Origin: an uncultured Candidatus Saccharibacteria bacterium | Lineage (GTDB): Bacteria > Patescibacteriota > Minisyncoccia > Phycocordibacterales > Phycocordibacteraceae | Length of the DNA: 64,000 bases | Reading direction: 5' to 3' | Assembly: GCA_964650475.1 (NCBI GenBank) | Contig: CAZYRK010000001.1 | Location: 8,356 to 72,355, forward strand | In this document: positions 1 through 56,700 of the stretch, one piece after another | Layout: each line of letters opens with the position of its first letter | Numbering within the stretch: position 1 is the stretch's first letter | Translations under genes and position numbers: made by a program | The notes under the pieces: generated by a model | Databases searched by the model: none | The model's input: only the letters and a program-made list of their open reading frames with translations | What the model was told of the DNA's origin: nothing

Positions 1-1250
1 ATTAATTTGTTTTCATTGTCATTGAGTGGATATCCAAAATCATCTTTTTTATCATAAGTAATCAATGCGTTTAACTTACTGTCATTTATACCAGTCTTTG
101 TTTTTAAATACTTACTCAAAGACTGATCCACCATATATTCAACAATTTGTCTTGGCGTATAAAAACTACCAGTACGTTTACGCTCACTAATTCCTGACGT
201 TTCGTCAATTTCTGCCAATAGATTCTCAAATATTCGCCCAAGCATCTCAGGGTCAACGGATATCTCCTGGTCAATGACAGTATTTTCATCAATGGTAAAG
301 TTATAGTTTTCAAGTATTCCAAAAAAATCCTTAAACCACTTATCAGATATTTTGAGAGTATTTATATGTTTTGATACTCCAAGCTGTATATCAAGGTCAT
401 AATAATCATCATACTGTGGACTAAATAAACCACCGTTCAAATATGGGACTTTGTCATATAAATCACTTTTAATATGTCGATTATCAATCTCTGTGTTCAA
501 AATCTCAAAAAACAATCTCTCTAGCACTTCATGATAATAACCATTATTTACTGCGCCGGAAGAAAGCAGTTCATCCGGTATGAGTTGCCCTCTATCTGAT
601 TTTTTTTGTTTTAGAAACCAGCAAAACATTATGCGCCCTATTAGCCGGACTGCGAAGTTTTTTCTTATATTCACTTCAGCTCCAGAAGGCATATTGAAGA
701 TATTGTTTCCTTCTGAAACCAGCTCGTCAAAATATTTAGCGATAGATAAATAGAATTGTTTATTTACAACATCCAGGGAGAACCTGTTTTGTAAATCTTC
801 AAAATCTTTAACTATGCCCTTCGCGATAAGAAACTTGGTTGGCGTATGTATTTTTGCGTTTTCTCCCAAGAAAAATGAAAAGCGCCGCGGATTGGAGAAT
901 TCTCTTGTCATTTTACCTTTCTCGTTTAAGACCGGCATCATAGTCATAAGTGACAATCTCCAGTCATTGTCTTTATTTGATTTATATACTATCAATGCAC
1001 GCTTCTCGGAATAATCTTTCATAATTCTAAAACCGTCTGTCGCAAGAGCTATGCGCGGATCGTTAATGGAATTATGCATCACTTCAAAGACGGCGAGTTC
1101 CAACTCGTCATCTCTACCAAGTAAATTTACTTCTTTTATTTCTTTCAGATTTTTTACTCCTACTGGGACTACATCTTTACTGAAATTAGGGAGGAAATTA
1201 TTTAAGAACTCAAGAAAATCACTTCGATTATATTCTTTATCTAATCTCAT
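1..1250 (-). CDS. N6-adenine DNA methyltransferase, Eco57I/type IIG/PglX-like; N-terminal ~416 aa only, the gene runs off the window start
   Basis: My own reverse-strand translation from the ATG at 1250..1248 is open to position 1 with no stop. It is missing from the supplied ORF track, presumably because there is no in-window stop. It reads ...VDPEMLGRIFENLLAEIDETSGISERKRTGSFYTPRQIVEYMVDQSL..., i.e. the LGxxFExxL and GxFYTP motifs of gamma-class N6A MTases. The NPPY motif would lie beyond the window. The start overlaps the upstream helicase stop as ATGA (1247-1250). Confidence 0.7.
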   Translation of the reverse strand, partial: MRLDKEYNRSDFLEFLNNFLPNFSKDVVPVGVKNLKEIKEVNLLGRDDELELAVFEVMHNSINDPRIALATDGFRIMKDYSEKRALIVYKSNKDNDWRLSLMTMMPVLNEKGKMTREFSNPRRFSFFLGENAKIHTPTKFLIAKGIVKDFEDLQNRFSLDVVNKQFYLSIAKYFDELVSEGNNIFNMPSGAEVNIRKNFAVRLIGRIMFCWFLKQKKSDRGQLIPDELLSSGAVNNGYYHEVLERLFFEILNTEIDNRHIKSDLYDKVPYLNGGLFSPQYDDYYDLDIQLGVSKHINTLKISDKWFKDFFGILENYNFTIDENTVIDQEISVDPEMLGRIFENLLAEIDETSGISERKRTGSFYTPRQIVEYMVDQSLSKYLKTKTGINDSKLNALITYDKKDDFGYPLNDNENKL

Positions 1251-4200
1251 AGTCTTATATCTTCACTTAGGACAACTGTCTCGCCCTCATTCTCTTGTTG
1301 CTCTACGCGATTCATTATTGTAGTTATTTGGTGTTCCGGCATGATTTCTCGGAGCTCATTATACGCATCTTCACTGTTGGACATATCTAATCTGATTATC
1401 CTTTTTAAATCTCCTTCATTAACAGCATCATACTTTTTGATAATGTTATGCAAATCCTTACAATATCCTTTCGCTTGAGGTACTGTGGTTTCTATCAGCT
1501 CAATCACGCCAATAGCATCACCGCGCCTACCCAAAGATGGCAAAAGCGGCGGCTTTGCAAATAAAGTGTTTCGCACCAACTTAAACACCTCATCATATTG
1601 AACGTCTGCCTTTGTGCTTTGTTCATCTACTGTTGCCTTAAAATATTCAAGAGCCTCCGCTGCCGAGGTGATGACCGGTAACTGGTCTGTCGCGCGTTTA
1701 ACTGCAAAAATACTATCGACGCCTTTTTTCCCAAAGGCTATTACTGCAGGATTTTCACTGTTTGTGCGTACAATACGACTTCTCGGGAGTATCTGTAGCG
1801 CTTCGTCAAACACTCCCTTATCTTTTTTGGCATTATTATAATCTTCTTTGTACTTCGCATCCCAGGTCTCTTGCTCGGCGTCTTTGTCAGCATCTTCCAA
1901 CTGTTCTTTAAAGAAACTCTCTAGTTTCTCATCATCTGTGAGTGTTTTTGTATCACTGCCTATAACAGCATTTATCAAACGCATTTTCAATGTAGAGATT
2001 TCTTTAATTCGTATATGTTTTTCTCCTATCATCGTAGGAAAACAATTATATATATGCAATTCATCAAATACTCTTTTATTTATTCTGTTTATGCGTCCAA
2101 TTCTTTGGATTACACGTGTTGGGTTGTACGGTATGTCGTAATTGATAATGATGCCAGCTCTATGGAGATTGTAGCCCTCACTAAGAGCATCTGTAGTTAT
2201 TAAGATGTCATAATCATTATTCTGTTCTTTCTCAGGGACACCTGCATCAAAGTCTTTTCGTATTATTACTTTTGCGGATTGTCCTGTATCTTTTGCCGTA
2301 TATTTAAATATCCTTTTTACACCTCGTTTTTCAAGCTCTGCATATAGATAGTTTACTGTATCTGCATAAGTAGAAAATATAATTATTTTTCTTTTCTTAT
2401 TTTCTTTTAGAAATTCTTCCAGCTTATCCTTTACGGTATCTAGTTTCGGGTCAAAATCATTTTGAGGTGGGCAGTCTTTTGCAAACCAATCATCGTATAT
2501 TTCTTTTAAAACTCTTTTGTCTTGACGGACTTTTTCAATAAACTCATCTTTAAACATTTCTTTCTCTATAGCTATAAGACCAGGCGTTGTTTCCAGTTTT
2601 TCTATTTCTTTTTCTGCTAGTTGCTCATCTATACCATCAGAAACCTCATCATCTGTTGTATTAAGCAGAGTATCCGGATCCGGGATTGCTCCTTTTTTCA
2701 TTATTGGAACCTTACCGAGAATATCCCACCACTGTTCAACAATATTTGTTGAATCTAACATTTTTAAAAGAGTGGAACGAAAAGCATCTTTAGAACTCTC
2801 AAAGCGCGCTACAAGAAGCCGGCGCATAAATTTCGCAAGGTTTGTTTGAGCTGTTTGTAGGTCTTTATCATCAAAATATTCACCGTACTCTTTTAAGAAA
2901 TCTTTCCGTTTGTCTTCCTTAATGTATGTTGTTGGTTTATATCGTGCACCTACGAATCCATTCTCTACACCATTTTCAACTAATTTAGATAGAGTTTTAT
3001 TATACAAATCAAACAGATCTCCCAAATCATAGCTAAGCAATTTCGGTGGTTTTACTTCTGAAAAAACAATATTTTGACGTTTAAGATCTTCCGCATACGT
3101 AGTTATCCTTTTTAGATCTAGACGTGAGCGCCGCACAATAACATTTTCAATTAACCGCCTTAATTCACCAGCAATCTCATCTGCTTCTTTATTTATACCT
3201 TCTTTTTCTAGTTTTCCATTTATGCGAGCCGTGTTAAGTTTTTTATAACGGTCTATCAATTCTCTAAAACGTAAGCTGAGGTTATCTACTGAACGTATTG
3301 TTGATGACCCCGGTATTTGAAATAACTTAACAAGCGCAAATATATCCTTAGGATTGTTATTAAATGGCGTGGCGGTAAGTAATACAATTTTATTATCTTT
3401 GTGTGAATTGCATATGTGGTGCAACAATCGATAATCATTTATGTCTTCATTACGATATCGGTGTGCCTCATCTACGATTATAAGAATCGGTTCATTGCTA
3501 TCTTTGTACTTATCATAGACCTCTTGTATCTTGCCGGAACTGTATACACGAGCACCGGGTAGCTTAAATTCCGCCTGATAATCTTCCCACTGTTCTTTAA
3601 GGTGTGGTGGTGCGATTATTATCACTGGTAATCCAACGTTATAAGCTACTGCCGAAGCTATAATACTCTTCCCAAGACCAACAACATCAGCAAGTATGAG
3701 ACCATTGTATTTATTTAATTTATCTATTGCAATTTTTATTGCTTCTGTTTGATACTCCAAGTCAAAGTACTTATTATTAGTTATTTCTCCCGGTGTTTTT
3801 ATTATTCTTTCTTCTTCATATGAGAACAACTCATGCAAAACTCTTACATATACAGCATATGGACTTGGCCGTGCATATACCCAGAGTTTTTCCTTTATAT
3901 TTTTTAAAAATTCATCTTTATTTTCCTTTGTGGCTATTTCTACATTCTCAGCATCAGCCCATTTTTTCTCAAATCTATCTGTATGTCTTTCGTACACTCC
4001 CTCGTCACTAAGTTTTTCATTAACTTCTTCTTGATTCAATAATCCCTGAAATGTAAAGTTACTGGAGCCCATAAATACAAACCCATGGTTATTATTTACA
4101 TCTTTCACTTCTGATTCGTTGTGAAGTATGTACACTTTGCCATGTGCTTTCTTCGACGTGAGCTTTATCTCCAATGTTCCATTAGCAACTTTTTCTTCAA

Positions 4201-4600
4201 GAACTTTATATGCCCCTTGGCTTTCTGTATTGTCAAATAAAGCAGATTGATTACTTAATTCTATAAATCCTTTAACGTATGTTTGCTTCTTTGCGCTATA
4301 TGATGTTTGCCCGGTTCTAGGTTGGTATGGACTAAGATCAACAGTATCGCCCTCTTGTTTAATCCGCGTTAAAAGCCCCGGTATTGCATCAGGGTCTATA
4401 TATGTACCGACAAGGATACGCACTTGTTTATCTTTTAAAGACTCTGCTAGTAGTTGCCACCCTGAAAAATAGAAGAAAGCAACCTCAATATCTACCCTAT
4501 CAGTATTAGATAATGCACTAATAAGCGCACTGCTCATTGTGATCTCATTATTATCTATAATCTTGGCTGAATTATCCATAATTACACCATATAATAACAT
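1247..4600 (-). CDS. PLD-family (single HKD) nuclease domain fused to an SNF2/DEAH-family helicase (1117 aa)
   Basis: N-terminus has an HKD-like motif, AHGKVYILHNE...GSSNFTFQGL. Then Walker A ADVVGLGKS, DEAH box IIVDEAHRY, a TATP motif, and helicase-C motifs TDALSEGYNLH...IQRIGRINRI. It is translationally coupled to the downstream MTase. Confidence 0.8.
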   Translation of the reverse strand: MLLYGVIMDNSAKIIDNNEITMSSALISALSNTDRVDIEVAFFYFSGWQLLAESLKDKQVRILVGTYIDPDAIPGLLTRIKQEGDTVDLSPYQPRTGQTSYSAKKQTYVKGFIELSNQSALFDNTESQGAYKVLEEKVANGTLEIKLTSKKAHGKVYILHNESEVKDVNNNHGFVFMGSSNFTFQGLLNQEEVNEKLSDEGVYERHTDRFEKKWADAENVEIATKENKDEFLKNIKEKLWVYARPSPYAVYVRVLHELFSYEEERIIKTPGEITNNKYFDLEYQTEAIKIAIDKLNKYNGLILADVVGLGKSIIASAVAYNVGLPVIIIAPPHLKEQWEDYQAEFKLPGARVYSSGKIQEVYDKYKDSNEPILIIVDEAHRYRNEDINDYRLLHHICNSHKDNKIVLLTATPFNNNPKDIFALVKLFQIPGSSTIRSVDNLSLRFRELIDRYKKLNTARINGKLEKEGINKEADEIAGELRRLIENVIVRRSRLDLKRITTYAEDLKRQNIVFSEVKPPKLLSYDLGDLFDLYNKTLSKLVENGVENGFVGARYKPTTYIKEDKRKDFLKEYGEYFDDKDLQTAQTNLAKFMRRLLVARFESSKDAFRSTLLKMLDSTNIVEQWWDILGKVPIMKKGAIPDPDTLLNTTDDEVSDGIDEQLAEKEIEKLETTPGLIAIEKEMFKDEFIEKVRQDKRVLKEIYDDWFAKDCPPQNDFDPKLDTVKDKLEEFLKENKKRKIIIFSTYADTVNYLYAELEKRGVKRIFKYTAKDTGQSAKVIIRKDFDAGVPEKEQNNDYDILITTDALSEGYNLHRAGIIINYDIPYNPTRVIQRIGRINRINKRVFDELHIYNCFPTMIGEKHIRIKEISTLKMRLINAVIGSDTKTLTDDEKLESFFKEQLEDADKDAEQETWDAKYKEDYNNAKKDKGVFDEALQILPRSRIVRTNSENPAVIAFGKKGVDSIFAVKRATDQLPVITSAAEALEYFKATVDEQSTKADVQYDEVFKLVRNTLFAKPPLLPSLGRRGDAIGVIELIETTVPQAKGYCKDLHNIIKKYDAVNEGDLKRIIRLDMSNSEDAYNELREIMPEHQITTIMNRVEQQENEGETVVLSEDIRL

Positions 4601-4896
4601 TTTCCTTGTTATTATAATAATTTAATTTTACTTATATAAATTCCATTCTCTATGGAGATTTATCAAAAAAAATTAGTTATTATAACTGATTTACAATATT
4701 TCAGCTTTATTTGTATTCAGTTTTTAAAAAGACATAACTACTACAATGGGTGTAACTAAACATAATTTACACATATTTTATATGTTTTTGCATAACTCAG
4801 AAGTATTTATTTACTTCCAAAACATCTAAATTTTTTTTAGAAACTTGTTAAGGACTCCTTACTTACGTTCGTTACAAACATACTATATATTACTAG

Positions 4897-4935
4897 GCGG
4901 AGTTTTTTGTTAAGAATATTTTTGACCTAAACGTG
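4897..4935. repeat. degenerate third copy of the tRNA-Glu 3'-flank/att-like repeat
   Basis: ggcggagttttttgttaagaatatttttgacctaaacgtgag matches cggagtttttcgttaagaatgtttttgtgaccctacgggg of the 6523-6650 and 6759-6873 repeats at about 34 of 40 positions. Confidence 0.35.
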
Positions 4936-5166
4936 AGACTTGCAGAAAAAGTATCACAAATGGTTAAATTAAAAATTCAATTCAAAATATATAACCTGTT
5001 CTTGCTTGACCTTTTTTTGTTGTTCTTGAACACTTTTATAAAAAGTTTTACAAAATACAATCAGTCCGGCAGCATCTGCAATGCCGCCGGACTGAAAACC
5101 AAACAAATAAGACGCTTTATCAGCTTGGTCTCAAGCTGCTGTTCAGATTAGCGAGCCGTTTGTTAA

Positions 5167-6312
5167 TTATTTAGTTTCTCCTTTTAAGGGCAGAAAATCA
5201 TTCTCATCGAGCGCGCGCATTATTCCACGCAACAGATATCCGTTTGATATTTTAATCATATATTTGCGCGACTTCTTCTTAATTGGGATAATAAGTTTAT
5301 TATTTCTCATACTGCGTAAAAAACGAGATATTTCAGTATGTGCTGTGTTCTCCGGAAACAAATGTTTTATGTCCGACGCTTGAAATTCGGTCTTTTCAAT
5401 CGCAATAACCAACACCTTCTTTTCTTTTTCATTTATCACCTTTCTTTCTTTGGCATATTCAATTGCTTTGTATAAAATATTTTCTTTAAGAAAATTGTAA
5501 TCCGCCAATTTATCAATTTTTGCAATTTCTTTTGATAAACCCTTTAACACATATTCCGACCAAGCAAGCACATCTTCATCTTTACCTGAATCAGCCGTCT
5601 CTAACATGTCATAGTATTTATTTCTATCACTACAAAATACTGCGGTTGGGTTTATAAGTCGTCCTTTTTCCAAATTAAACCCTTGCCTTATAAGCATGGC
5701 GTATGTCAAAGCTCGCACAGTACGACCGTTTCCGTTACCAAACGGGTGTATCCATGCAAAACGATGGTGTACAATCGCTGTTTTTAGCAAATCAAATTGT
5801 GGGTCATTTTTGTTATTTATAAAACCCATAAGTTCTTCCATATAACCCGGCACTTGTAAATGGTCCGGCGGGGTGTATTTAGATTTATTTATTGCCACAT
5901 TATGCGTACGGTATTGACCCGGGGTCGTATCACCCTCACGGGTAAGATTATTTACAATAATCTTTTGTATCTCACGTATGAACATGTGATTTATAGGCAT
6001 TGTTGCGCTATTTTCTTCTACAAAACCCATGACACGTTCATTGTTTTGAATTTCAAGAATACCTTCTGGCGGATTTTTTTCAGGAGTTATTTTACTCTCA
6101 ACATATTCAGCAATTGTTGTTCTGTTACCCTCAATACGCGTTGACCCAATACTTTCAAGTAAATGGAAAATCTCTTTAAGCTGAAAAAAAATGGTAGAAG
6201 GGGTGGTTCCGCCAAGTCGTGAATGTCGCATTCTGTCAAGCTCGAGTATAAGCTTGGTCAATTCTGAGCCAAATTTCGGCTCCGGAAGATGTAATTTATT
6301 ATAAGAAGACAT
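5167..6312 (-). CDS. Fic/DOC family protein (AMPylase-type), class II with an N-terminal inhibitory motif
   Basis: Canonical Fic motif HPFGNGNGRTVRAL. An (S/T)xxxE(G/N) inhibitory-helix motif, STRIEGN, lies in the N-terminal region. The C-terminus looks like a winged helix. Confidence 0.85.
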   Translation of the reverse strand: MSSYNKLHLPEPKFGSELTKLILELDRMRHSRLGGTTPSTIFFQLKEIFHLLESIGSTRIEGNRTTIAEYVESKITPEKNPPEGILEIQNNERVMGFVEENSATMPINHMFIREIQKIIVNNLTREGDTTPGQYRTHNVAINKSKYTPPDHLQVPGYMEELMGFINNKNDPQFDLLKTAIVHHRFAWIHPFGNGNGRTVRALTYAMLIRQGFNLEKGRLINPTAVFCSDRNKYYDMLETADSGKDEDVLAWSEYVLKGLSKEIAKIDKLADYNFLKENILYKAIEYAKERKVINEKEKKVLVIAIEKTEFQASDIKHLFPENTAHTEISRFLRSMRNNKLIIPIKKKSRKYMIKISNGYLLRGIMRALDENDFLPLKGETK

Positions 6313-6522
6313 GTAACAAATCTAAATTAAAGATGTAACATAATACTAGCAAGACCCCTTGTTTTAAGCAATTTTATACACAGTGTATTAAAAATAGATG
6401 TAACATCGCATGTTCACGACAAGTAACAATCGTTCCAAACAAAATGCCCCAAACTGCCTTTTCATTCTCAATCTCAATCCGTTTGTTTGATTGTCTAGTG
6501 TAACAAAACAACACAAAACTAC

Positions 6523-25817: not shown

Positions 25818-26127
25818 ATGCTTTTACAAGACAAATAAAAATACAAAACAACTTTCTAAAAACTTATTGCTTTTAAAAACACTTTCTGACGAAAACCGAC
25901 TGAAAATAATTTGTTTTTTGAAAACCGGTGAAAAATGTGTTTGTGAGATTGTTGATTTTCTAGAACTTCCACAAAATCTTGTTTCCCATCATTTAAAAAT
26001 CTTAAGGGATCAAAATATCGTTTCTACAAAAAAACAAGGATTGAAAATAATTTACTCGCTGAACACTGCGTGGCTTCCAACCATTATCAAATTCTTTAAT
26101 TCTTTAAACCCTAGATATGTCGACTAA
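25813..26127 (+). CDS. ArsR/SmtB-family transcriptional regulator
   Basis: HTH region CVCEIVDFLELPQNLVSHHLKILRDQNIV. Confidence 0.8.
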   Translation: MKCFYKTNKNTKQLSKNLLLLKTLSDENRLKIICFLKTGEKCVCEIVDFLELPQNLVSHHLKILRDQNIVSTKKQGLKIIYSLNTAWLPTIIKFFNSLNPRYVD

Positions 26128-26374
26128 AACAACAATTAAGGTTCTAGGTTCCGGATGTCCTTCTTGCAAAAAACTCTATACAAAAGTTTTAAAAAACGTA
26201 AAAGAAATAGACCGCGATTTAAACGTTGAGTACATTACCGACATTACAAAAATACTGGAACTTGGTGTTATGAGTAGCCCTGTCTTTATGATAAACGACA
26301 GAATAATATTTGTAGGGAGAATACCCGATGACAAAGAGATAAAAGAAGCTCTTCTTAGCAATCTGAGCACATAA
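26117..26374 (+). CDS. thioredoxin-fold small redox-active protein (CxxC)
   Basis: VLGSGCPSCKKL CxxC, about 85 aa. Typical partner of COG0701 permeases. Confidence 0.7.
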   Translation: MSTKTTIKVLGSGCPSCKKLYTKVLKNVKEIDRDLNVEYITDITKILELGVMSSPVFMINDRIIFVGRIPDDKEIKEALLSNLST

Positions 26375-26379
26375 AACAT

Positions 26380-27351
26380 ATGAGTGTTTTTTATCCATTA
26401 AAAGAGATGGCAGACTATATAACATACAGTCTTCTCTCCCTACAAACAGGCTCACATTTGGCAAATTCCGTACAATTCTTTTTTTATGATTCGCTAAAAA
26501 TAATTATTTTAATTTTAATGATCACTCATTTAATGAGCCTTCTCCGGTATTACTTACCGATTGAAAAGTTACGCGACTTTCTTATAACTCATAATTTTTA
26601 CGGATTAGATTATTTTCTAGCTACAATATTTGGAGCGATTACTCCATTTTGCTCCTGTTCATCTATTCCTTTATTTATTGGTTTTATTGAAGCGGAAATT
26701 CCGCTCGGTGTAACTTTTGCTTTTTTAATAACATCTCCTCTTATCAATGAAATAGCTCTGGCATTATTTATCGGTATGTTTGGAATTAAAATAACTTTTT
26801 TTTACATACTGGCAGGAATAACCATAGGAATGATTGGAGGGTTTGCTATCGGTAAATTACATTTGGAAAGATTTGTGGAAGATTTTGTTTGGAAAACTCA
26901 AATGAATAGACGAGATATTTCTACAAAAAAATTGGCTTTTATCAAAATTTTAAAAATTATATCCAAAGAAGCTTTTAATATAACGAGTAAGATTATCCTT
27001 TATGTTTTAATTGGTGTTGGGCTTGGAGCTTTTATCCACGGATTTGTTCCACAAGGTTTCTTTGAAAAATATCTCCTGGAAGCGGGATGGCTTGGCGTCC
27101 CGCTCGCCGTTATATTGGCTGTACCGCTTTACTCGAACGCAAGCGGAGTTATTCCGATTATTGAATCGTTAGTCTCAAAAGGAGTACCTATCGGAACTGC
27201 GCTATCCCTAATGATGGCTATTGTTGGGATTTCACTACCGGAAGCATTAATACTTAAAAAAATACTTAAGTGGCAACTACTTGCTGTGTTTTTTGGAATA
27301 GTAACGTTTGGGATAATAATAATCGGATACTTGTTTAATATAATTCTTTAA
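26380..27351 (+). CDS. COG0701/DUF318-type permease
   Basis: Polytopic membrane protein with the paired-Cys segment ITPFCSCSSIPLF. In an operon with arsR and the Trx-like gene. Confidence 0.65.
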   Translation: MSVFYPLKEMADYITYSLLSLQTGSHLANSVQFFFYDSLKIIILILMITHLMSLLRYYLPIEKLRDFLITHNFYGLDYFLATIFGAITPFCSCSSIPLFIGFIEAEIPLGVTFAFLITSPLINEIALALFIGMFGIKITFFYILAGITIGMIGGFAIGKLHLERFVEDFVWKTQMNRRDISTKKLAFIKILKIISKEAFNITSKIILYVLIGVGLGAFIHGFVPQGFFEKYLLEAGWLGVPLAVILAVPLYSNASGVIPIIESLVSKGVPIGTALSLMMAIVGISLPEALILKKILKWQLLAVFFGIVTFGIIIIGYLFNIIL

Positions 27352-27436
27352 AAAAGAAGCATGTCTTATACTTATTTAATTTAAAAAACAAAAAACACCC
27401 GTTGCTTTGCTCAGGGTGTTTTTACGATACTTTAAG

Positions 27437-27628
27437 CTAGTTTGTATGTACAAACTTTTTTTCGTATTTAGTTAAGATGTCTTTTTGGTCAGCCGAAGCA
27501 CCGCGCAGGGCTTTTCTATATGCTTTTGCCTTTGTTTTTGCATCGGCTTCAGCAAAAAAAACATACACAGGGCTTTTGTCGCCTTGCGCGGTTTTTGTAA
27601 TTCCGAGATACCTCAATATAGTTTTCAT
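27437..27628 (-). CDS. hypothetical small protein
   Basis: 63-aa ORF next to the RhuM fragment. Confidence 0.3.
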   Translation of the reverse strand: MKTILRYLGITKTAQGDKSPVYVFFAEADAKTKAKAYRKALRGASADQKDILTKYEKKFVHTN

Positions 27629-27703
27629 AAAATCTCCATTAGTTTATCTTTAGAATAGCTTTTCTTTATATACCCGTCAATACTGTATATATTAAAGTTG
27701 AAT

Positions 27704-28204
27704 CTATATGTTATTTATTAGATTTAAATTTTTTAATTTGATTTTCAAAATCAGAGTCAAATCCAGTAATTCTTGAAAGTAATCTTTACCAAAATATTGA
27801 CCGTTTTTTAACCTCTTGTCATCCATTGCAAAACCTTTGATAATATATTCTTTCAAGATTTTACTCGCCCAAATACGAAACTGTGTTGCTCTTTTTGAAT
27901 TTACACGGTAACCAACAGCAATAATTATATTAAGATTATAGTATCTAATCGGTTTATCAGAATGACCAAAGTGCATTTTTTGCACATTGCTTTTTTCTTT
28001 TAATTCATCATTTTCAAAAATATTCTTTATATGTTTTGTAACAACAGACCTGTCAACACCAAAAAGCTCCGATATTCTTTTTTGCGAAAGCCAAATGCTC
28101 TCGTTATGTAAAAACGCCTCCACCCTCACCTCGCCATTCGGGTCGGTATAAAGCAAAAACTCCGTCAACCCGTCTTTGTCTTTACCTGTGATTTTTTTGG
28201 TCAT
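27704..28204 (-). CDS. RhuM-family (virulence/antirepressor-like) protein, N-terminal fragment; probable remnant of an integrated element
   Basis: SELFGVDRSVVTKHIKNIF...YYNLNIIIAVGYRVNSKRATQFRIWASKILKEYIIKGF matches the RhuM family. 166 aa against about 330 for full length. Confidence 0.6.
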   Translation of the reverse strand: MTKKITGKDKDGLTEFLLYTDPNGEVRVEAFLHNESIWLSQKRISELFGVDRSVVTKHIKNIFENDELKEKSNVQKMHFGHSDKPIRYYNLNIIIAVGYRVNSKRATQFRIWASKILKEYIIKGFAMDDKRLKNGQYFGKDYFQELLDLTLILKIKLKNLNLINNI

Positions 28205-28384
28205 AGTATTAAAAAATTGTTTTTTATAAAAACAGTCATATCTTGAATATGAGTTATACGAGTTATTGGTTCTTCGTCGGAATATATTGACTGGTATATT
28301 TTGACTAATCCGGATATCCAGTTAAATATATTATACTACAAACGCCATATCAGGATGTGAGTTACTCTGATTCGTCAAAATTTA

Positions 28385-28409
28385 TTTGGGAAGGTTAGAC
28401 CTTCTCAAC
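28385..28409. repeat. copy of repeat module E (ttgggaagg-N5-ccttc hairpin) next to tRNA-Asn att remnants
   Basis: tttgggaaggttagaccttctcaac resembles the modules at 48014, 55113, 55160, 55541 and 56340. Confidence 0.5.
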
Positions 28410-28419
28410 TGACAAGTAT

Positions 28420-28535
28420 TGGCTCCGGCTGTAAGCAAAGCTTGCCACCGTTCGTATCCTCAAAAAAGAACATCGCACTCGCGGTATTTCTTTTTGTTCG
28501 GATGCTCCGGCGGTAAGCAGAGCTTTCCACCGCTC
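28420..28535. repeat. two degenerate direct copies of the tRNA-Asn 3' end (att-site remnants)
   Basis: ggctccggctgtaagcaaagcttgccaccg (28420-28450) and gctccggcggtaagcagagctttccaccg (28503-28532) share GCTCCGGCGGTA with the reverse complement of the tRNA-Asn 3' end. Confidence 0.55.
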
Positions 28536-28548
28536 ACCTCGGTGAGCA

Positions 28549-28588
28549 TACAAATACCCGCGACTATCGTCGCGAGTATTTGTATGCT
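28549..28588. repeat. 18-bp inverted repeat hairpin just 3' of tRNA-Asn
   Basis: catacaaatacccgcgac-tatc-gtcgcgagtatttgtatg with 1 mismatch. Confidence 0.5.
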
Positions 28589-28595
28589 ACCTCGG

Positions 28596-28667
28596 CTCCG
28601 GCGGTAGGACTCGAACCTACAACCAATTCGTTAACAGCGAACTGCTCTACCATTGAGCTACACCGGA
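28596..28667 (-). tRNA. tRNA-Asn (anticodon GTT)
   Basis: Hand-folded: acceptor TCCGGTG/CGCCGGA, D-stem GCTC/GAGC, anticodon stem GTTCG/CGAAT with loop CTGTTAA, T-stem GTAGG/CCTAC with loop TTCGAGT, discriminator G. Confidence 0.85.
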
Positions 28668-28790
28668 ATGTGTTTTTATTGCAAATTTATCTTTGCTGGT
28701 TTCAGCGCAAGCCAAAACCGTACTGATAAGTATAGCGAATATGAAACGTCTTTGCAAAGCATGCGGCACTATCGTTTTTTAAGTCGTAAT

Positions 28791-39668: not shown

Positions 39669-39762
39669 AAGTTATATAATAAACAAGATAGCAAAAAGAA
39701 AAAGCCCGGCAAGCAAAGCGAAAGCTTTACTTGCCGGGCTTTTGACGCCACCGGTTAAGAAA

Positions 39763-40401
39763 TCAATACAAATACAAACCGGCAGACACCCAAATAGCAA
39801 TCCCCAGCATATAGAAAGACATTTTTTCTTGTACTCCAAAGCGCCATAATGGGCTAAATTTTGCCTGTCCGAAATATGCCCATAAGGTAAGCAAAACGGA
39901 GGTCATGAATATATCGTTATTTGACACAGGGATTGTAGTCAACCCTGTGTACGCCATAACGATAACCCATGTTGTGAAAGTGGCAAAAAGAATGTGTATG
40001 TACCCCGCCACGGTCACATACCCTCCGTGTGCATGTGCCTCGGGTATGTTCTTGCTTGCCGGAGCATAAACCAACACTGCGAGCAAAAACCACGCCCAGA
40101 AAAAGATCATGAATAATACGAGGCCTCCAAACTGCATGTATTCGAAACTATACTTTTGCACAAGATACGCAACCAACGGACTTATGATGAACAAATCCGC
40201 CCACATACCTCCGTGCTGCATAAACGAATACCCTTTTACACCACGTTCCTCCATTTGTTTTTTTGTGGCGTATCCATCAATTCTGGACGCAACAAACTGC
40301 GCCAAAATTAAAAGAAGCTCCAGACCCAGCACTTCAAAGAAAATCGCATTTGCCTTGATTAATCCCCAAACGACAAAGAACATCTCATGTACATTAAACA
40401 T
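39763..40401 (-). CDS. hypothetical polytopic membrane protein
   Basis: 212-aa hydrophobic ORF, divergent from the gene at 40658. Confidence 0.5.
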   Translation of the reverse strand: MFNVHEMFFVVWGLIKANAIFFEVLGLELLLILAQFVASRIDGYATKKQMEERGVKGYSFMQHGGMWADLFIISPLVAYLVQKYSFEYMQFGGLVLFMIFFWAWFLLAVLVYAPASKNIPEAHAHGGYVTVAGYIHILFATFTTWVIVMAYTGLTTIPVSNNDIFMTSVLLTLWAYFGQAKFSPLWRFGVQEKMSFYMLGIAIWVSAGLYLY

Positions 40402-40496
40402 TTCACTCCTCCCTTTTTATATACACAATTATGATTTTTAATACATTGTTTATAAATGTATCTCCTGTATAAACTATATCTATTTTAGAGCATTAT

Positions 40497-40556
40497 GTCA
40501 AGCGCGCTGAATTAACTCTTGAACTGCAGTTCAAGAGTTAATTCAGCGCGCTTGAC
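40497..40556. repeat. perfect 60-bp palindrome centred on CTGCAG
   Basis: gtcaagcgcgctgaattaactcttgaactg|cagttcaagagttaattcagcgcgcttgac, checked base by base. Confidence 0.9.
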
Positions 40557-40657
40557 TATCGCTTGGCAATCTGGCATTATTATTTTTAGATAAAAGATCC
40601 TTTCAAAAAGTCAACCAACAAAAAGTAATACAAACCCTAAACCTAGAGGAGGTTATT

Positions 40658-41173
40658 ATGGGAACAAGACTTTTAACGCAAAGGCTGGTGCCCCGCCAAA
40701 GAGAACCCATGGATATAGAAACTCTGTCGACAATGGTGTCGACGTTTCCGTGGATCGCCGAGCGCATCGGCGAGACACCTGAGTATGTCCACATAGTGGA
40801 TGCTCAGATGTCTATATTAAGTTACCAACCAATGATTGAGGAAGTAATTTGGTTGTTAAACAAAAAAGGCGAGGTTGTTGTGTTTAGCCCGCCGATCAGA
40901 AAGATTTTGTTCTGGAAACTGCCTGCCAAAAGCTCTGTAAATGGTGTTGTACGGAACGAGGAAGTAGGAGATGTTGTTTATCGTCTCGGAAAGGAAGCTG
41001 AAAAAATCCGTATTGTGCTTTCCTACCACCGAGGTAATGAAACAGCGATTGTGTATCTCCTAGGAGATACACAATCGCTGTACGAAAGTCTCGACGAGGA
41101 ATACCAGCGCGAACGCGAAACCTTTTTACAGTTTGCCACGCGCGCAAGTTTGCTAAACAGTGGGCATCTGTAA
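40658..41173 (+). CDS. hypothetical protein
   Basis: 171-aa ORF preceded by a strong SD, aggagg-N6-ATG, and followed by two tandem terminators. Confidence 0.55.
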   Translation: MGTRLLTQRLVPRQREPMDIETLSTMVSTFPWIAERIGETPEYVHIVDAQMSILSYQPMIEEVIWLLNKKGEVVVFSPPIRKILFWKLPAKSSVNGVVRNEEVGDVVYRLGKEAEKIRIVLSYHRGNETAIVYLLGDTQSLYESLDEEYQRERETFLQFATRASLLNSGHL

Positions 41174-41202
41174 TTTCCGCGTGTTTTCCACCACGCATTC
41201 AA

Positions 41203-41237
41203 AGGTTCGTCGTTTACGACGAACCTTTTTCTTTTTA
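41203..41237 (+). terminator. rho-independent terminator
   Basis: aaaggttcgtcg-tttac-gacgaacctttttcttttt. Confidence 0.7.
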
Positions 41238-41300: not shown

Positions 41301-41337
41301 AAAACGCCCGCCGTTTACGGCGGGCGTTTTTTCTTTT
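41301..41337 (+). terminator. second tandem rho-independent terminator
   Basis: aaaacgcccgccg-tttac-ggcgggcgttttttcttttt. Confidence 0.7.
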
Positions 41338-41398: not shown

Positions 41399-43222
41399 AT
41401 GCTTACACGCCCACAATCCTGCTGTGTAAAAAACGTTTTCAATAACTCAGGAGACGTTTCGCTCACAAGTCTTATTTTCGGCGCGCCCCTTATTTTTACA
41501 GTACTCAGCATTATTGGTTTTTTGTTTCACCTGCCACTACTGTATTTAATAGTTATAGCCACTTCCATAGTAACAATTCTCATTCATTCTTATCATGAGA
41601 TTCGTAACGGAAATTTCTCACTCGAATACATAACACTGCTTGCTCTTTTTGTTAGCGCCGGAACAGAAGAATACCTTGCAGGAGCAATTATCGGCACCAT
41701 GTTTGCAATAGGCAGAGTTTTCGAAAAATACACTCTTGCGAGAGTTTTAAAACCTCTCAAAGATTTTTTAGATTTTATTCCGAAAACTGCTCTGATTAAA
41801 AAAGGCGTTTCAAAAACGCGAGAAACACCTATTACAAGCGTACACGAAGGAGACATTGTTGTGGTACATAATGGCAACGTCGTGCCTTTAGATGGTTGGC
41901 TCCTTTCAGAAAACGCGGTATTAAATATTTCAAAACTAACAAATGAACAGGCTCCGAAAATAATCCTGAGAGATGCATTCATCAGAAGCGGTAGTATCAA
42001 TACTGGAAAAACTTTTGAGTTTTTGGTTGCGAACACATCTGCAACATCAACGTACCACCGAGTAGTCTCACTTGTTACGCGAGCCAAAGTCGGCAGAGCA
42101 CACTTCGTGCGCTCTGCCGAAAAAGCAAACACACCGTTTACAATTTTAATACTCGCCGTGGCACTTGGCACATATTTAATAACACACGACCCTTCTCGCA
42201 CACTTGCGGTACTGGCAGTAGCAACAACAAGATCGCTTACTATCGCTACACCGATTGCTTTTTTCGGAGGTATTTCACAAACACTTCGTTCCAACATTAT
42301 AATCAAACATCCTTCCGTACTTGAAAGCCTTGCAAAGGCTTCCGATATCTTTTTTGACAAAACACGCACCCTGACATTCGGCTCGATACATTTTGTTGCT
42401 GTCGATTTATATAATTCGGATTTTTCCGTCACCAGTGCGCTCGCGTATGCGAGCGCACTGGGGCTCCACTCCACACACCCTCTTTCCGAAGCTGTTGTAA
42501 AAACCGCGCACATATGCGAAACACCGATATATTTCGCAACGAAAGTAACAGAACAAAGCAAAAGAGGTATAAACGGATATATAGACGGAATGCCGGTTTC
42601 TCTTACACATACAATTTCCCAAAAAACCGACTACGATATCGCACTCACTCTTTCTGTAAACGAAATACCATACGCAACATTATTTTTTGCAGAAAACATC
42701 GACACTGACACAAAAAAACAATTCCTAAAACTTTCCAAAACAGGATGTAATATTTCAATTTTTACTCAGAAACAATCTGCGTCGACACGAGTTTTTAAAC
42801 AAACGCCAATAACACTACACACCGGATGCACTTCTGAAAAAAAGAGTTCCTTAATCTCCCGAGCAAAACTTGGCGGGAAAATTGTAGCTGTTGTCGGTGA
42901 CGGAATGAGTGATACCCAAACCCTTTCATGTGCAGACGTGGGGATAATGCTTTCAGGTGCTGAAACAGGTACCTGCGTTTATGCAACAAGTGTTGTCGTG
43001 CTTGGAAATAATCCAGAGCATATACGCACCTTAATAAAGATTGCGAACAAAACCGTTTATATAGCAAAACAAAGTATATATATAGGTATAGGTTTTTCTA
43101 TTATAGGGATATGGTTTGCAACCGCAGGAATCATCACTCCTATTAGCGGAGCACTACTGCAAAAAACCGTAGATGTTTTCGTTACATTAAACACTCTTCG
43201 CAACAAAACAGCTGCACAATAA
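41399..43222 (+). CDS. divergent P1B-like P-type ATPase homolog with degenerate catalytic and metal-binding motifs
   Basis: Still has the HP motif (STHPLSEAVV) and a GDGMSDTQTLSCADVGIML hinge. DKTGT is DKTRT, TGES is TNEQ, and the TM6 CPC is replaced (TTRSLTIATPIAF). Confidence 0.6.
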   Translation: MLTRPQSCCVKNVFNNSGDVSLTSLIFGAPLIFTVLSIIGFLFHLPLLYLIVIATSIVTILIHSYHEIRNGNFSLEYITLLALFVSAGTEEYLAGAIIGTMFAIGRVFEKYTLARVLKPLKDFLDFIPKTALIKKGVSKTRETPITSVHEGDIVVVHNGNVVPLDGWLLSENAVLNISKLTNEQAPKIILRDAFIRSGSINTGKTFEFLVANTSATSTYHRVVSLVTRAKVGRAHFVRSAEKANTPFTILILAVALGTYLITHDPSRTLAVLAVATTRSLTIATPIAFFGGISQTLRSNIIIKHPSVLESLAKASDIFFDKTRTLTFGSIHFVAVDLYNSDFSVTSALAYASALGLHSTHPLSEAVVKTAHICETPIYFATKVTEQSKRGINGYIDGMPVSLTHTISQKTDYDIALTLSVNEIPYATLFFAENIDTDTKKQFLKLSKTGCNISIFTQKQSASTRVFKQTPITLHTGCTSEKKSSLISRAKLGGKIVAVVGDGMSDTQTLSCADVGIMLSGAETGTCVYATSVVVLGNNPEHIRTLIKIANKTVYIAKQSIYIGIGFSIIGIWFATAGIITPISGALLQKTVDVFVTLNTLRNKTAAQ

Positions 43223-55094: not shown

Positions 55095-55600
55095 CCCCAT
55101 AAGTTGCGACGCGTTTGGGAAGGTCTAACCTTCCCACTTTTCCGAGAAAAACCCTTGGCATATTTTGGGAAGGTCTAACCTTCCCAACTTTTCACAAATA
55201 AAAACCTAAGCGGTACGTTGCGATGGATAGGGTAAGACATGGCCGAGCAGTTTTGCGGACACTAAGTGTCCGCAAAACTAAGTGTCCGCAGAAAGTGTCC
55301 GCAGAAATTAACCGCTAAAAACCTAAGCGGTACGTTGCGATGGTGCAGGGTAAAACTGCCGACATTGCCGACACTTAGTGTCGGCAGAGAGAGACTGTTC
55401 GCGTCATATTGTTTTGTAATGTAGCGCGTGGTTTTGGGGTTTAGATAGACCGGCTAAACATTTTGGGAAAGTTAGACCTTTTGCGGACACTTAGTGTCCG
55501 CAGAAATATAGCGCGTGGGTTTGCGGACACTTAGTGTCCGCAAAAATAGATTTTAGGAAGGTTAGACCTTCCTAACTTTTTCCGAGATGTTTTTAGACTA
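55095..55600. repeat. mosaic hairpin-repeat locus 2
   Basis: Same module set as locus 1, with E modules at 55113, 55160 and 55541 and B palindromes at 55250, 55480 and 55520. Confidence 0.8.
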
Positions 55601-55640
55601 TAGATTTATATCGCTTAATTAAAATGGTATTATCGAAAAT

Positions 55641-56327
55641 ATGAAAAGAAGTTCTGTAATTCCAATAACAATCATCCTCGGCGGCATGCTCGTGGCAAGT
55701 GCTATATATATTACAACAATCCAAAAAGCCCCTCCACAAAAAATGCACTCCGATTTGTTTCGTCCTGTAAGCGTTACCGACCACATTCTTGGCAACCCAG
55801 ACGCCCCTGTAAAAATAATCGAGTACTCCGACCTTACCTGCAAATATTGCAAAGACTTCGACAATACAATGCGACAAATAATTAAGAAATACGGGGCGTC
55901 AGGAAATGTCGCATGGGTGTTTCGCGAGTTTCCATTAACCGAAATACATCCAAACGCCATGAGATTCGCTATCGCCGCCGAATGCGTTGCAAAAACCGCG
56001 GGAGAAACTGCATTTTGGAACTTCCTTAAAATTATTTTTGCAGACCAACCTGCCAATACAAAAAACTTGGGGCAATACGCCAAAGAATCTGGAGCGAACC
56101 CAGACGTCGTAGCAACTTGTATCATTAGCGGTTCTGTAAACAAAAAAATAAATGCGGACAGAAAAAACGCTCTCTCTATAGGAGCAAGCGGCACGCCTTA
56201 TTCTCTCATCACAACATACGGAGCCCCTCCCGTTATTATAAATGGCGCGTATCCATACGACTATATTGAACAAGAAATAAACACAGCTCTAAATATAGCC
56301 AGCTCAACCGAGGCGGCACAAAAATAA
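55641..56327 (+). CDS. DsbA-like thiol:disulfide oxidoreductase (thioredoxin fold, membrane-anchored)
   Basis: N-terminal TM; CxxC active site DLTCKYCKDF. Confidence 0.75.
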   Translation: MKRSSVIPITIILGGMLVASAIYITTIQKAPPQKMHSDLFRPVSVTDHILGNPDAPVKIIEYSDLTCKYCKDFDNTMRQIIKKYGASGNVAWVFREFPLTEIHPNAMRFAIAAECVAKTAGETAFWNFLKIIFADQPANTKNLGQYAKESGANPDVVATCIISGSVNKKINADRKNALSIGASGTPYSLITTYGAPPVIINGAYPYDYIEQEINTALNIASSTEAAQK

Positions 56328-56334
56328 AATCGAC

Positions 56335-56700
56335 TAGCATTTGGGAAGGTCTAACCTTCCCAACATGAACCGCTAAAAACCTAAGCGGTACGTTGCGATG
56401 GATAGGGTAAGACATGAGTTTTGCGGACACTTAGTGTCCGCAAAAGTGTAGCGCATGGTTTTGTAGTGCGTGGTTTTGATATCTAAGAGACCAGCTAACA
56501 TGAACAGCTAAAAAGCACGCGGTACGTTGCGATGAGTTTTGCGGACACTAAGTGTCCGCAAAATAGTATCGGCAGAAATTAACACTTGCGGACACTTAGT
56601 GTCCGCAAAAGTGTCCGCAAAAAGTGTCCGCAGAAATGTAGCGCGGGGGTTTGGGGTTTGGGGTTTGGGGTTTGGGGTTTGGGGTTTGGGGAGACCAGCT
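56335..56700. repeat. mosaic hairpin-repeat locus 3, ending in a (GGGGTTT)5GGGG microsatellite (56646-56684)
   Basis: Modules E, A, B, D repeated. The final D module has its ggttttgRggttt segment expanded to five GGGGTTT units. Confidence 0.8.

Follow-up and report, generated by a model that had tools for sequence, protein, structure and literature searches.

The window, by which we mean the whole 64-kb stretch of DNA that was analysed, is ordinary chromosome. It carries genes for a MurE/F-type ligase, PBPs, MraW, MreBC, GreA, RRF, several aminoacyl-tRNA synthetases, PEP synthase, GH130 phosphorylases and three P-type ATPases. Between two of its divergent genes (39763-40401 on the minus strand and 40658-41173 on the plus strand) lies a gap of 256 bp that houses a long perfect inverted repeat, here called palindrome 1, and the mid-point of this gap is only 3 bp away from the centre of the palindrome. 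GT2, glycerate kinase, PEP synthase, P-type ATPase and GH130 genes are found in the neighbourhood, and no transposase, integrase, protelomerase or transcription factor is encoded near the palindrome.

The minus-strand gene points away from palindrome 1 and encodes a multi-pass hydrophobic membrane protein of 212 amino acids, for which no match was found in Pfam, NCBIfam, PADLOC or PHROG. An intrinsic-terminator-like hairpin followed by a T-run (39700-39743, minus strand) is located directly after this gene and before the GT2 gene. On the plus strand, ORF171 encodes a protein of 171 amino acids that likewise has no match in Pfam, NCBIfam, PADLOC or PHROGs, and its AF2 model (pLDDT 89) has no structural match. 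To judge by its substitution pattern, ORF171 is a genuine coding gene, with dN/dS values of 0.25-0.30 in frame versus 0.67-1.66 in the other frames. With its 11 remote relatives (29-40% identity), one of them annotated as from Candidatus Paceibacterota, it forms a small uncharacterised family. A preliminary description of this DNA had credited the gene at 40658 with an unusually strong Shine-Dalgarno sequence; its GGAGG is canonical, and that of the membrane-protein gene (GGGAGGAG) is equally good.

Palindrome 1 consists of a left arm (40497-40526; GTCAAGCGCGCTGAATTAACTCTTGAACTG) and a right arm (40527-40556; CAGTTCAAGAGTTAATTCAGCGCGCTTGAC) of 30 nt each, which are 100% complementary and are separated by a spacer of 0 nt, with the sequence CTGCAG at the centre (40524-40529). 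The sequence thereby confirms what the preliminary description had reported, namely a perfect 60-bp palindrome with zero mismatches, centred on CTGCAG in a divergent promoter region. Two identical 8-mers, AGCGCGCT, each of which is itself palindromic, lie at positions 40501 and 40545, 44 bp apart, and border a 36-bp core on either side, while a TAT stands on each side of the palindrome as a whole. An allele that is devoid of the palindrome shares the outer 12 nt of the right arm (AGCGCGCTTGAC, 40545-40556). As single-stranded DNA, palindrome 1 folds with -35.5 kcal/mol (z = -10.9). In 100 dinucleotide-preserving shuffles of the window, the longest arm of a zero-spacer palindrome was 11 nt (mean 8.2), compared with the 30 nt observed. 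A search for half-site copies, as had been suggested earlier, found that the arm occurs once in the 64-kb window: the 30-mer has no other match at up to 3 mismatches (expected 0.00). Because the arm is unmatched elsewhere in the window and the shuffles reach only 11 nt, palindrome 1 is not a product of chance.

Contigs bearing near-identical neighbouring genes define three lineages. Lineage W comprises the window, L002 and L003; lineage M comprises L001, L008, L009, L019 and L021; and lineage E comprises L010-L014. In the right-hand flank, the DNA identity is about 98% between W and M, about 96.3% between W and E and about 96.9% between M and E. Palindrome 1 is carried by W and M and is missing from E. 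As W and M are identical over the whole 480 bp around the palindrome, they provide one observation of the palindrome-bearing allele and not two. The membrane protein is 87% identical in lineage E, and its gene is wholly absent in lineage M, where a short filler joins the promoter region to the terminator upstream of GT2.

Palindrome 1 is real and perfect. L003 (GCA_006243085.1), which stems from a different metagenome assembly, spans the entire palindrome and contains both unique flanks. L001 (GCA_006243245.1) has its first base 4 nt into the left arm and continues through the palindrome. The Logan k=31 contigs L002 (SRR6439370) and L019 (SRR6439372), which derive from two different SRA runs, end exactly at 40526, the centre of symmetry. 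At k=31, canonical k-mers within a perfect palindrome whose arms measure 30 nt or more are expected to fold back, and the unitig of the flank would then have to stop at the centre. These contig ends thus constitute k-mer-level evidence that palindrome 1 exists in the reads. In addition, the two flanks are different, unique sequences that are collinear with lineage E, which is not the arrangement of a fold-back artefact. The possibility of a chimeric assembly, raised in the preliminary description, can be discarded in view of the coverage of the site by L003 and L001 and of the Logan breaks at the position that a true palindrome predicts.

The difference between the alleles is a 56-bp segment (40489-40544) that W and M contain and E does not. 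This indel is asymmetric relative to palindrome 1, takes out its centre, and is bounded by a 3-nt direct repeat, AGC, at 40489-40491 and 40545-40547. In the alignment, the window and L003 contain the full palindrome, and the E junction reads CTATTTTAG joined directly to AGCGCGTTTGAC in L012, L013 and L014, identically in these three independent E-lineage assemblies. Within the E-lineage region, in which CTATTTTAG is followed by AGCGCGTTTGACTATCAC, only the outer 12 nt of the right arm are left, TTGAC included. A loss in E is favoured because a single microhomology deletion explains the E allele, while the reverse direction needs at least two events: converting an E-like sequence into W would require 36 bp of new palindromic sequence plus an inverted copy of the adjacent 12 nt plus 8 bases. 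We therefore consider a loss in E to be somewhat likelier than a gain in W/M. It is the mechanism alone that suggests this polarity, since the tree ((W,M),E) accommodates a gain as parsimoniously as a loss. An outgroup with a homologous intergenic region was not found, as the nearest relatives of either flanking gene are at most 50% identical and lie in a different context. The membrane-protein search of genome contigs returned one relative with 42% identity in a different context, and the relatives at up to 50% identity found in the homologue search have the membrane-GT2 pair without ORF171. In the distant MAG GCA_021789225.1, the locus of the ORF171 homologue has no palindrome, and the divergent partner is unrelated. 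Read as a deletion, the E allele bears out the earlier expectation that such palindromes are unstable.

ORF171 contains a second perfect palindrome, to which the preliminary description made no reference. Palindrome 2 (41042-41081) has two 20-nt arms with zero spacer, is centred on CCTAGG and encodes TAIVYLLGDTQSL. All three lineages (W, M and E) contain it, although L012 has one mismatch at the centre. Contigs break here as well: the JGI contig L013 ends at 41062, one base past the centre, and the first base of the Logan contig L008 is 41052, where a break is expected at this palindrome for k=31. Palindrome 2 covers the most conserved motif of the ORF171 family. The left arm encodes TAIVY, which is typical of the family, and the right arm encodes LLGDTQ at a position where 10 of the 11 relatives have a proline-containing motif of the K/T-L-P-K type; the length is unchanged. 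The nearest homologue (L022) has no palindrome at this position. These observations suggest that a template-switch mutation replaced the right arm, in frame, with the left arm copied in inverted orientation. By eye, the arms of palindromes 1 and 2 show no similarity to each other.

The surrounding region is variable in further respects. A 15-bp indel (40604-40618) separates E from W and M, which possess an extra unit of the CAAAAAGT... direct repeat at this place. Lineage M is a mosaic that equals W over 40501-40980 and is E-like beyond. Between W and E, dS is 0.365 for ORF171, 0.173 for the membrane-protein gene and 0.074 for the adjacent GT2 gene, and the intergenic region differs by 5 substitutions in 185 aligned bases.

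Both ends of palindrome 1 overlap promoter-like sites, all of which are consensus matches in an organism with uncharacterised promoters. On the minus strand, TTGACA-17-TATAGT (40473-40501; 11/12) faces the membrane-protein gene and takes the TTGAC of its -35 box from the outer end of the left arm. This is one of only two 11/12 promoter-like sites on both strands of the 64-kb window (128 kb of scanned strand). The E allele has TAGTCA-18-TATGGT at this position (8/12), with the -35 box lost and a weaker -10 box. On the plus strand, TTGACT-17-CATTAT (40552-40580; 9/12, with TG before the -10 box) faces ORF171; its -35 TTGAC is the outer end of the right arm, and the site is the same in both alleles. 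Transcription is predicted to start near 40466 (minus strand) and 40587 (plus strand). Since both sites point outward, palindrome 1 would not be transcribed from these two best sites. The left promoter would mainly serve the membrane-protein gene alone, because the terminator-like hairpin directly follows that gene. In lineage M, the strong left promoter persists though the membrane-protein gene is gone, which weakens the argument that this promoter is under selection. An alternative minus-strand site, TTGAAA-16-AATAAT (40579-40606; 10/12), is present in both alleles and would transcribe through palindrome 1 towards the membrane-protein gene.

In its general appearance, palindrome 1 looks like a young and unstable, single-copy and lineage-specific structural variant of an intergenic promoter region. 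The best explanation, to which we give about an even chance of being correct, is that a single-copy inverted duplication arose by template switching and generated both the core of a bidirectional promoter and a fragile site that was deleted in E. The duplicated, mirrored DNA would have comprised the -35 box of the ORF171 promoter and the sequence immediately upstream of it. A replication template switch is the likely route, a process that seemingly also lies behind the in-frame palindrome 2. The mirror copy, combined with a pre-existing -10-like hexamer, may have created the near-consensus promoter for the membrane-protein gene, so that the 60 bp would form the symmetric core of a back-to-back bidirectional promoter and would remain untranscribed by the two main promoters. 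As a long perfect palindrome, this core would pose a hazard for replication and repair, and lineage E would have lost it via the 56-bp deletion between the AGC microhomologies. The surrounding kilobase may be seen as a hotspot of deletion, recombination and divergence. For the central 36 bp of palindrome 1, no source was detectable, and a template switch presupposes a one-armed ancestor, which is hypothetical here.

The preliminary description had also considered an operator for a dimeric regulator. A dimeric or higher-order protein could bind the symmetric sequence, for example via the two AGCGCGCT sub-sites abutting the -35 boxes, and control both promoters. Like palindromic operators in divergent promoters, palindrome 1 is symmetric, centred between divergent genes and placed over both -35 boxes. 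Moreover, its identical 8-bp palindromic sub-sites at 40501 and 40545 are spaced about four helical turns apart, and the intergenic region has diverged less than the genes beside it (5 substitutions per 185 bp compared to up to 20 per 100 bp in ORF171). However, palindrome 1 is not conserved at orthologous promoters: it is absent from the 96%-identical lineage E, which retains both genes and the ORF171 promoter, and from the DNA upstream of the ORF171 homologue in GCA_021789225.1. A perfect palindrome of 60 bp is also far longer than known operators, exceeding typical ones three- to fourfold, and palindrome 1 differs between close strains. A cognate regulator, which could also be encoded at a greater distance, was not identified near the palindrome, as none of the genes within about 10 kb encodes an HTH or RHH domain, the neighbouring genes contain no transcription-factor domain, and ORF171 has neither a DNA-binding signature nor a structural relative. 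Co-regulation by a symmetric binding protein is thus unsupported by the comparison, and we consider it unlikely.

We assign a similarly low probability to the proposal that selection maintains palindrome 1 in W and M, either as the core of a bidirectional promoter or operator, or as a programmed fragile site through which the membrane-protein gene and ORF171 are rapidly gained, lost and exchanged as alleles. If true, the locus would represent a natural, palindrome-based diversity generator for a surface protein in a small-genome bacterium, probably a member of the Patescibacteria/CPR.

A further reading, which we regard as quite improbable, is a transcribed RNA hairpin. Transcription from the 40606-40579 site would provide the membrane-protein mRNA with a leader containing a perfect 28-bp stem, which could stabilise the transcript, be cut by RNase III or stand in the way of transcription as a roadblock. 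This 10/12 site is found in both alleles, and the modelled leader of 171 nt folds with the full hairpin (-64.9 kcal/mol, z = -10). Yet the stronger 11/12 site is located downstream of the hairpin and would bypass it, and lineage E does without the hairpin altogether. There is also no U-tract after either arm, the palindrome is not listed in the terminator scan, and no Rfam family reaches its gathering score, the generic hairpin matches being far below. The structured leader mentioned in the preliminary description would consequently exist only if the weaker site were used; from the two best sites, it would not be made.

Insertion of foreign or mobile DNA, i.e., of a small palindromic element or of captured filler DNA that entered an E-like site in the ancestor of W and M, is still more doubtful. 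The copies of AGCGCGCT on either side of the 36-bp core are readable as an 8-bp target duplication, TAT...TAT flanks the whole palindrome, and a gain is as parsimonious as a loss on the tree. We know of no element, though, that consists of a 36-bp perfect palindrome with an 8-bp duplication. The E allele is not the TAT-flanked empty site: 12 nt of the right arm remain in it and 8 nt of the left flank are missing, and because it departs from the expected empty site by these further 12 nt, at least two events would be needed. No transposase or integrase is encoded nearby, and no other copy was found in any collection searched. The 18-nt core of palindrome 1 has no second copy in the 64-kb window with up to 3 mismatches allowed. 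In exact scans, a 20-mer of the arm (including 4 flank-side bases) was absent from viral contigs and matched only two same-species contigs and one chance sequence among metagenome contigs. The central 34-mer had no match in viral contigs, and palindrome 1 had no blastn match among plasmids and phages. This chance match, L005, lies within an unrelated CDS. MITEs and REP, BIME or Correia-like elements resemble palindrome 1 in being short, non-coding, intergenic and hairpin-forming, but palindrome 1 is single-copy across the window and the viral, metagenome, plasmid and phage collections and leaves no clean empty site. Its arms are furthermore perfect and contiguous in the centre, whereas MITE-type elements have terminal repeats around an internal segment. 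For the window and these collections, the data contradict the earlier suggestion of a MITE-like relic.

An origin in assembly or library preparation, e.g., a fold-back chimera or an adapter-derived palindrome, is exceedingly improbable: the evidence stems wholly from short-read assemblies and several samples may share a single study, but there is agreement among four separate assemblies, made from different samples with two assemblers, each flank is unique and runs collinear with the lineage lacking the palindrome, and the contig breaks coincide with those that k-mer graph theory predicts when a genuine palindrome is in the reads. The Nextera mate-pair junction, which we take to be the relevant known library-adapter palindrome, is unlike the palindromes described here. 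An adapter origin was rejected on account of this sequence difference and of palindrome 2, which lies in frame in a gene under purifying selection and was recovered in several studies.

Other classes of DNA element were compared as well. In Rfam, no family reached the gathering threshold for palindrome 1; the best hits were plant miRNA-precursor models with 30-37 bits against thresholds of 85-249. Palindrome 1 is absent from the scan for intrinsic terminators, has no T-run beside either arm and is located upstream of both genes. Its housekeeping neighbours and the lack of phage or plasmid similarity do not fit a protelomerase-dependent hairpin-telomere site. A replication origin, suggested by the switch in gene strand at palindrome 1, was rejected after no DnaA-box cluster and no inversion of the GC skew were found; one-mismatch DnaA boxes occur at 4 per kb at palindrome 1 and at 1-3 per kb elsewhere. 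In these comparisons, palindrome 1 does not fit the expectations for MITEs, operators, terminators, Rfam families or telomere-resolution sites.

Palindrome 1 can instead be assigned to a class of event already described, and no new type of system comes to light here. In bacteria, template switching is the cause given for perfect inverted repeats (PMC5941160; Proteobacteria), and template-switch inverted repeats occur in promoters and coding regions of yeast (PMC13100816, PMC8604942), where the expansion of inverted repeats at promoters alters expression (PMC13100816). Palindrome 1 shares with these cases (PMC5941160, PMC13100816, PMC8604942) the perfect arms, and it is located in a promoter region, where it alters consensus elements. 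Palindrome 2 is similar in that it is in frame, one arm fits the family consensus while the other deviates, and the length is kept. Different from palindrome 1, with its 30-nt arms and no spacer, the inverted repeats in those studies are mostly shorter than 15 nt, and a one-armed or imperfect precursor of palindrome 1 has not been observed.

The second relevant comparison is with the long perfect palindromes of E. coli, which are fragile sites subject to hairpin cleavage by SbcCD and to slipped-strand deletion (PMC4245961, PMC3315005; review PMC7999016); the hairpins cleaved by SbcCD are formed by the perfect palindromes themselves (PMC4245961). Like these, palindrome 1 is perfect and spacer-free, and a sister lineage shows a deletion of the symmetry centre between short direct repeats. 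The flanking DNA, in addition, displays an excess of rearrangement and recombination. In contrast to the engineered palindromes of about 246-460 bp used in the E. coli work, palindrome 1 is natural and measures only 60 bp, and at least two lineages tolerate it. Unlike in slipped-strand deletion in E. coli, its microhomology repeats lie away from the hairpin base. Bacterial chromosomes seldom contain long perfect palindromes that lack a spacer, and knowledge about the fate of such palindromes comes mostly from engineered E. coli constructs. Palindrome 1 stands apart from the known cases in that it is natural, that it is unusually long for a spacer-free bacterial palindrome and that it has been caught both intact and deleted, with the natural populations analysed here showing both the intact and the centre-deleted state at one locus. 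The locus thus offers a compact natural example of how inverted duplication may build promoter elements, rewrite a conserved protein motif and destabilise the DNA in which it occurs.

ORF171, the 171-amino acid reading frame (40658-41173, plus strand) that lies downstream of the perfect 30+30 bp palindrome at 40497-40556 (palindrome 1), contains a second perfect palindrome, palindrome 2, which comprises 20+20 nt without a spacer, is centred on CCTAGG and extends from 41042 to 41081. It is kept in all three closely related strain lineages, i.e. W (to which the window belongs), M and E. Its right arm occupies the position at which 10 of 11 family members carry a proline-containing motif, and the length is unaltered. 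Palindrome 2 has the look of a template switch that rewrote a conserved ORF171 motif in frame.

The ORF171 family is very small and uncharacterised; among 1.8 billion representatives, it accounts for 12 clusters formed at 50% identity (P0019-P0030). One member carries the annotation Candidatus Paceibacterota. An AF2 model calculated from the 12-sequence alignment is confident (pLDDT 89, pTM 0.81) and returned no significant match in the PDB or BFVD, so that the predicted fold may be undescribed.

The region 39900-41035 is a local hotspot of divergence between strains. Between W and E, dS reaches 0.365 in ORF171 and 0.173 in the divergent membrane-protein gene (212 amino acids, 39763-40401, minus strand), in contrast to 0.074 in the neighbouring GT2 gene, and the intergenic region that separates ORF171 from the membrane-protein gene is nearly invariant. 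Lineage M is a mosaic, which is W-like up to 40980 and E-like thereafter. It also lacks the entire membrane-protein gene, as seen in the Logan contig L019 (SRR6439372, positions 1-180; about 39766-40447 of the window). At the junction, GCGGTA, a filler of 6 nt, connects the palindrome-side promoter region with the terminator hairpin that precedes GT2. Such an arrangement would leave lineage M with a putative promoter that is followed by a terminator approx. 100 nt further on.

The motifs TATTTT(T)AGA and GCATTAT are present on both sides of palindrome 1 (40481-40496 and 40574-40590). They are directly oriented, but their order changes from TATTTTAGA-GCATTAT on the left to GCATTAT-TATTTTTAGA on the right. 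This arrangement may go back to an earlier duplication or slippage event between the two divergent genes.

Two successive strong terminator-like hairpins with T-runs (41201-41228 and 41301-41330), whose stems CGTCGTTTACGACG and CGCCGTTTACGGCG share the loop context GTTTAC, separate ORF171 from a P-type ATPase gene (607 amino acids, 41399-43222). The HAD (hydrolase) domain of this ATPase scores 23.1 bits and is thus below the Pfam gathering cut-off of 26.4 bits, whereas the HAD domains of the two remaining P-type ATPases of the window do not fall short of it. The 607-amino acid protein is possibly a paralogue that has degenerated or diverged. The pairing of ATPase and GT2 genes recurs in the window and is also found at a distant MAG locus (L023).

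Further downstream, a dense family of short repeats (55240-56700) lies on either side of a DsbA/thioredoxin-like gene (55641-56327). Within this family, the palindrome TTTTGCGGACACT(T/A)AGTGTCCGCAAAA occurs at least six times and is accompanied by direct half-site repeats AAGTGTCCGCAGAAA, by AACCGCTAAAAACCTAAGCGGTACGTTGCGATGG as a repeat of approx. 35 nt and, at 56649-56692, by (GGGGTTT)x7 in tandem.

Two patches of the window, 1-6400 and 26000-28700, have a GC content of 33-37%, compared to about 43%. In the first, an SNF2/PLD-domain helicase (1247-4600) is accompanied by a Fic-domain protein (5167-6312) next to a tRNA-Glu, while the second harbours a truncated RhuM-family ORF (27704-28204) next to a tRNA-Asn. 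Both patches may be leftovers of integrated elements or defence islands.
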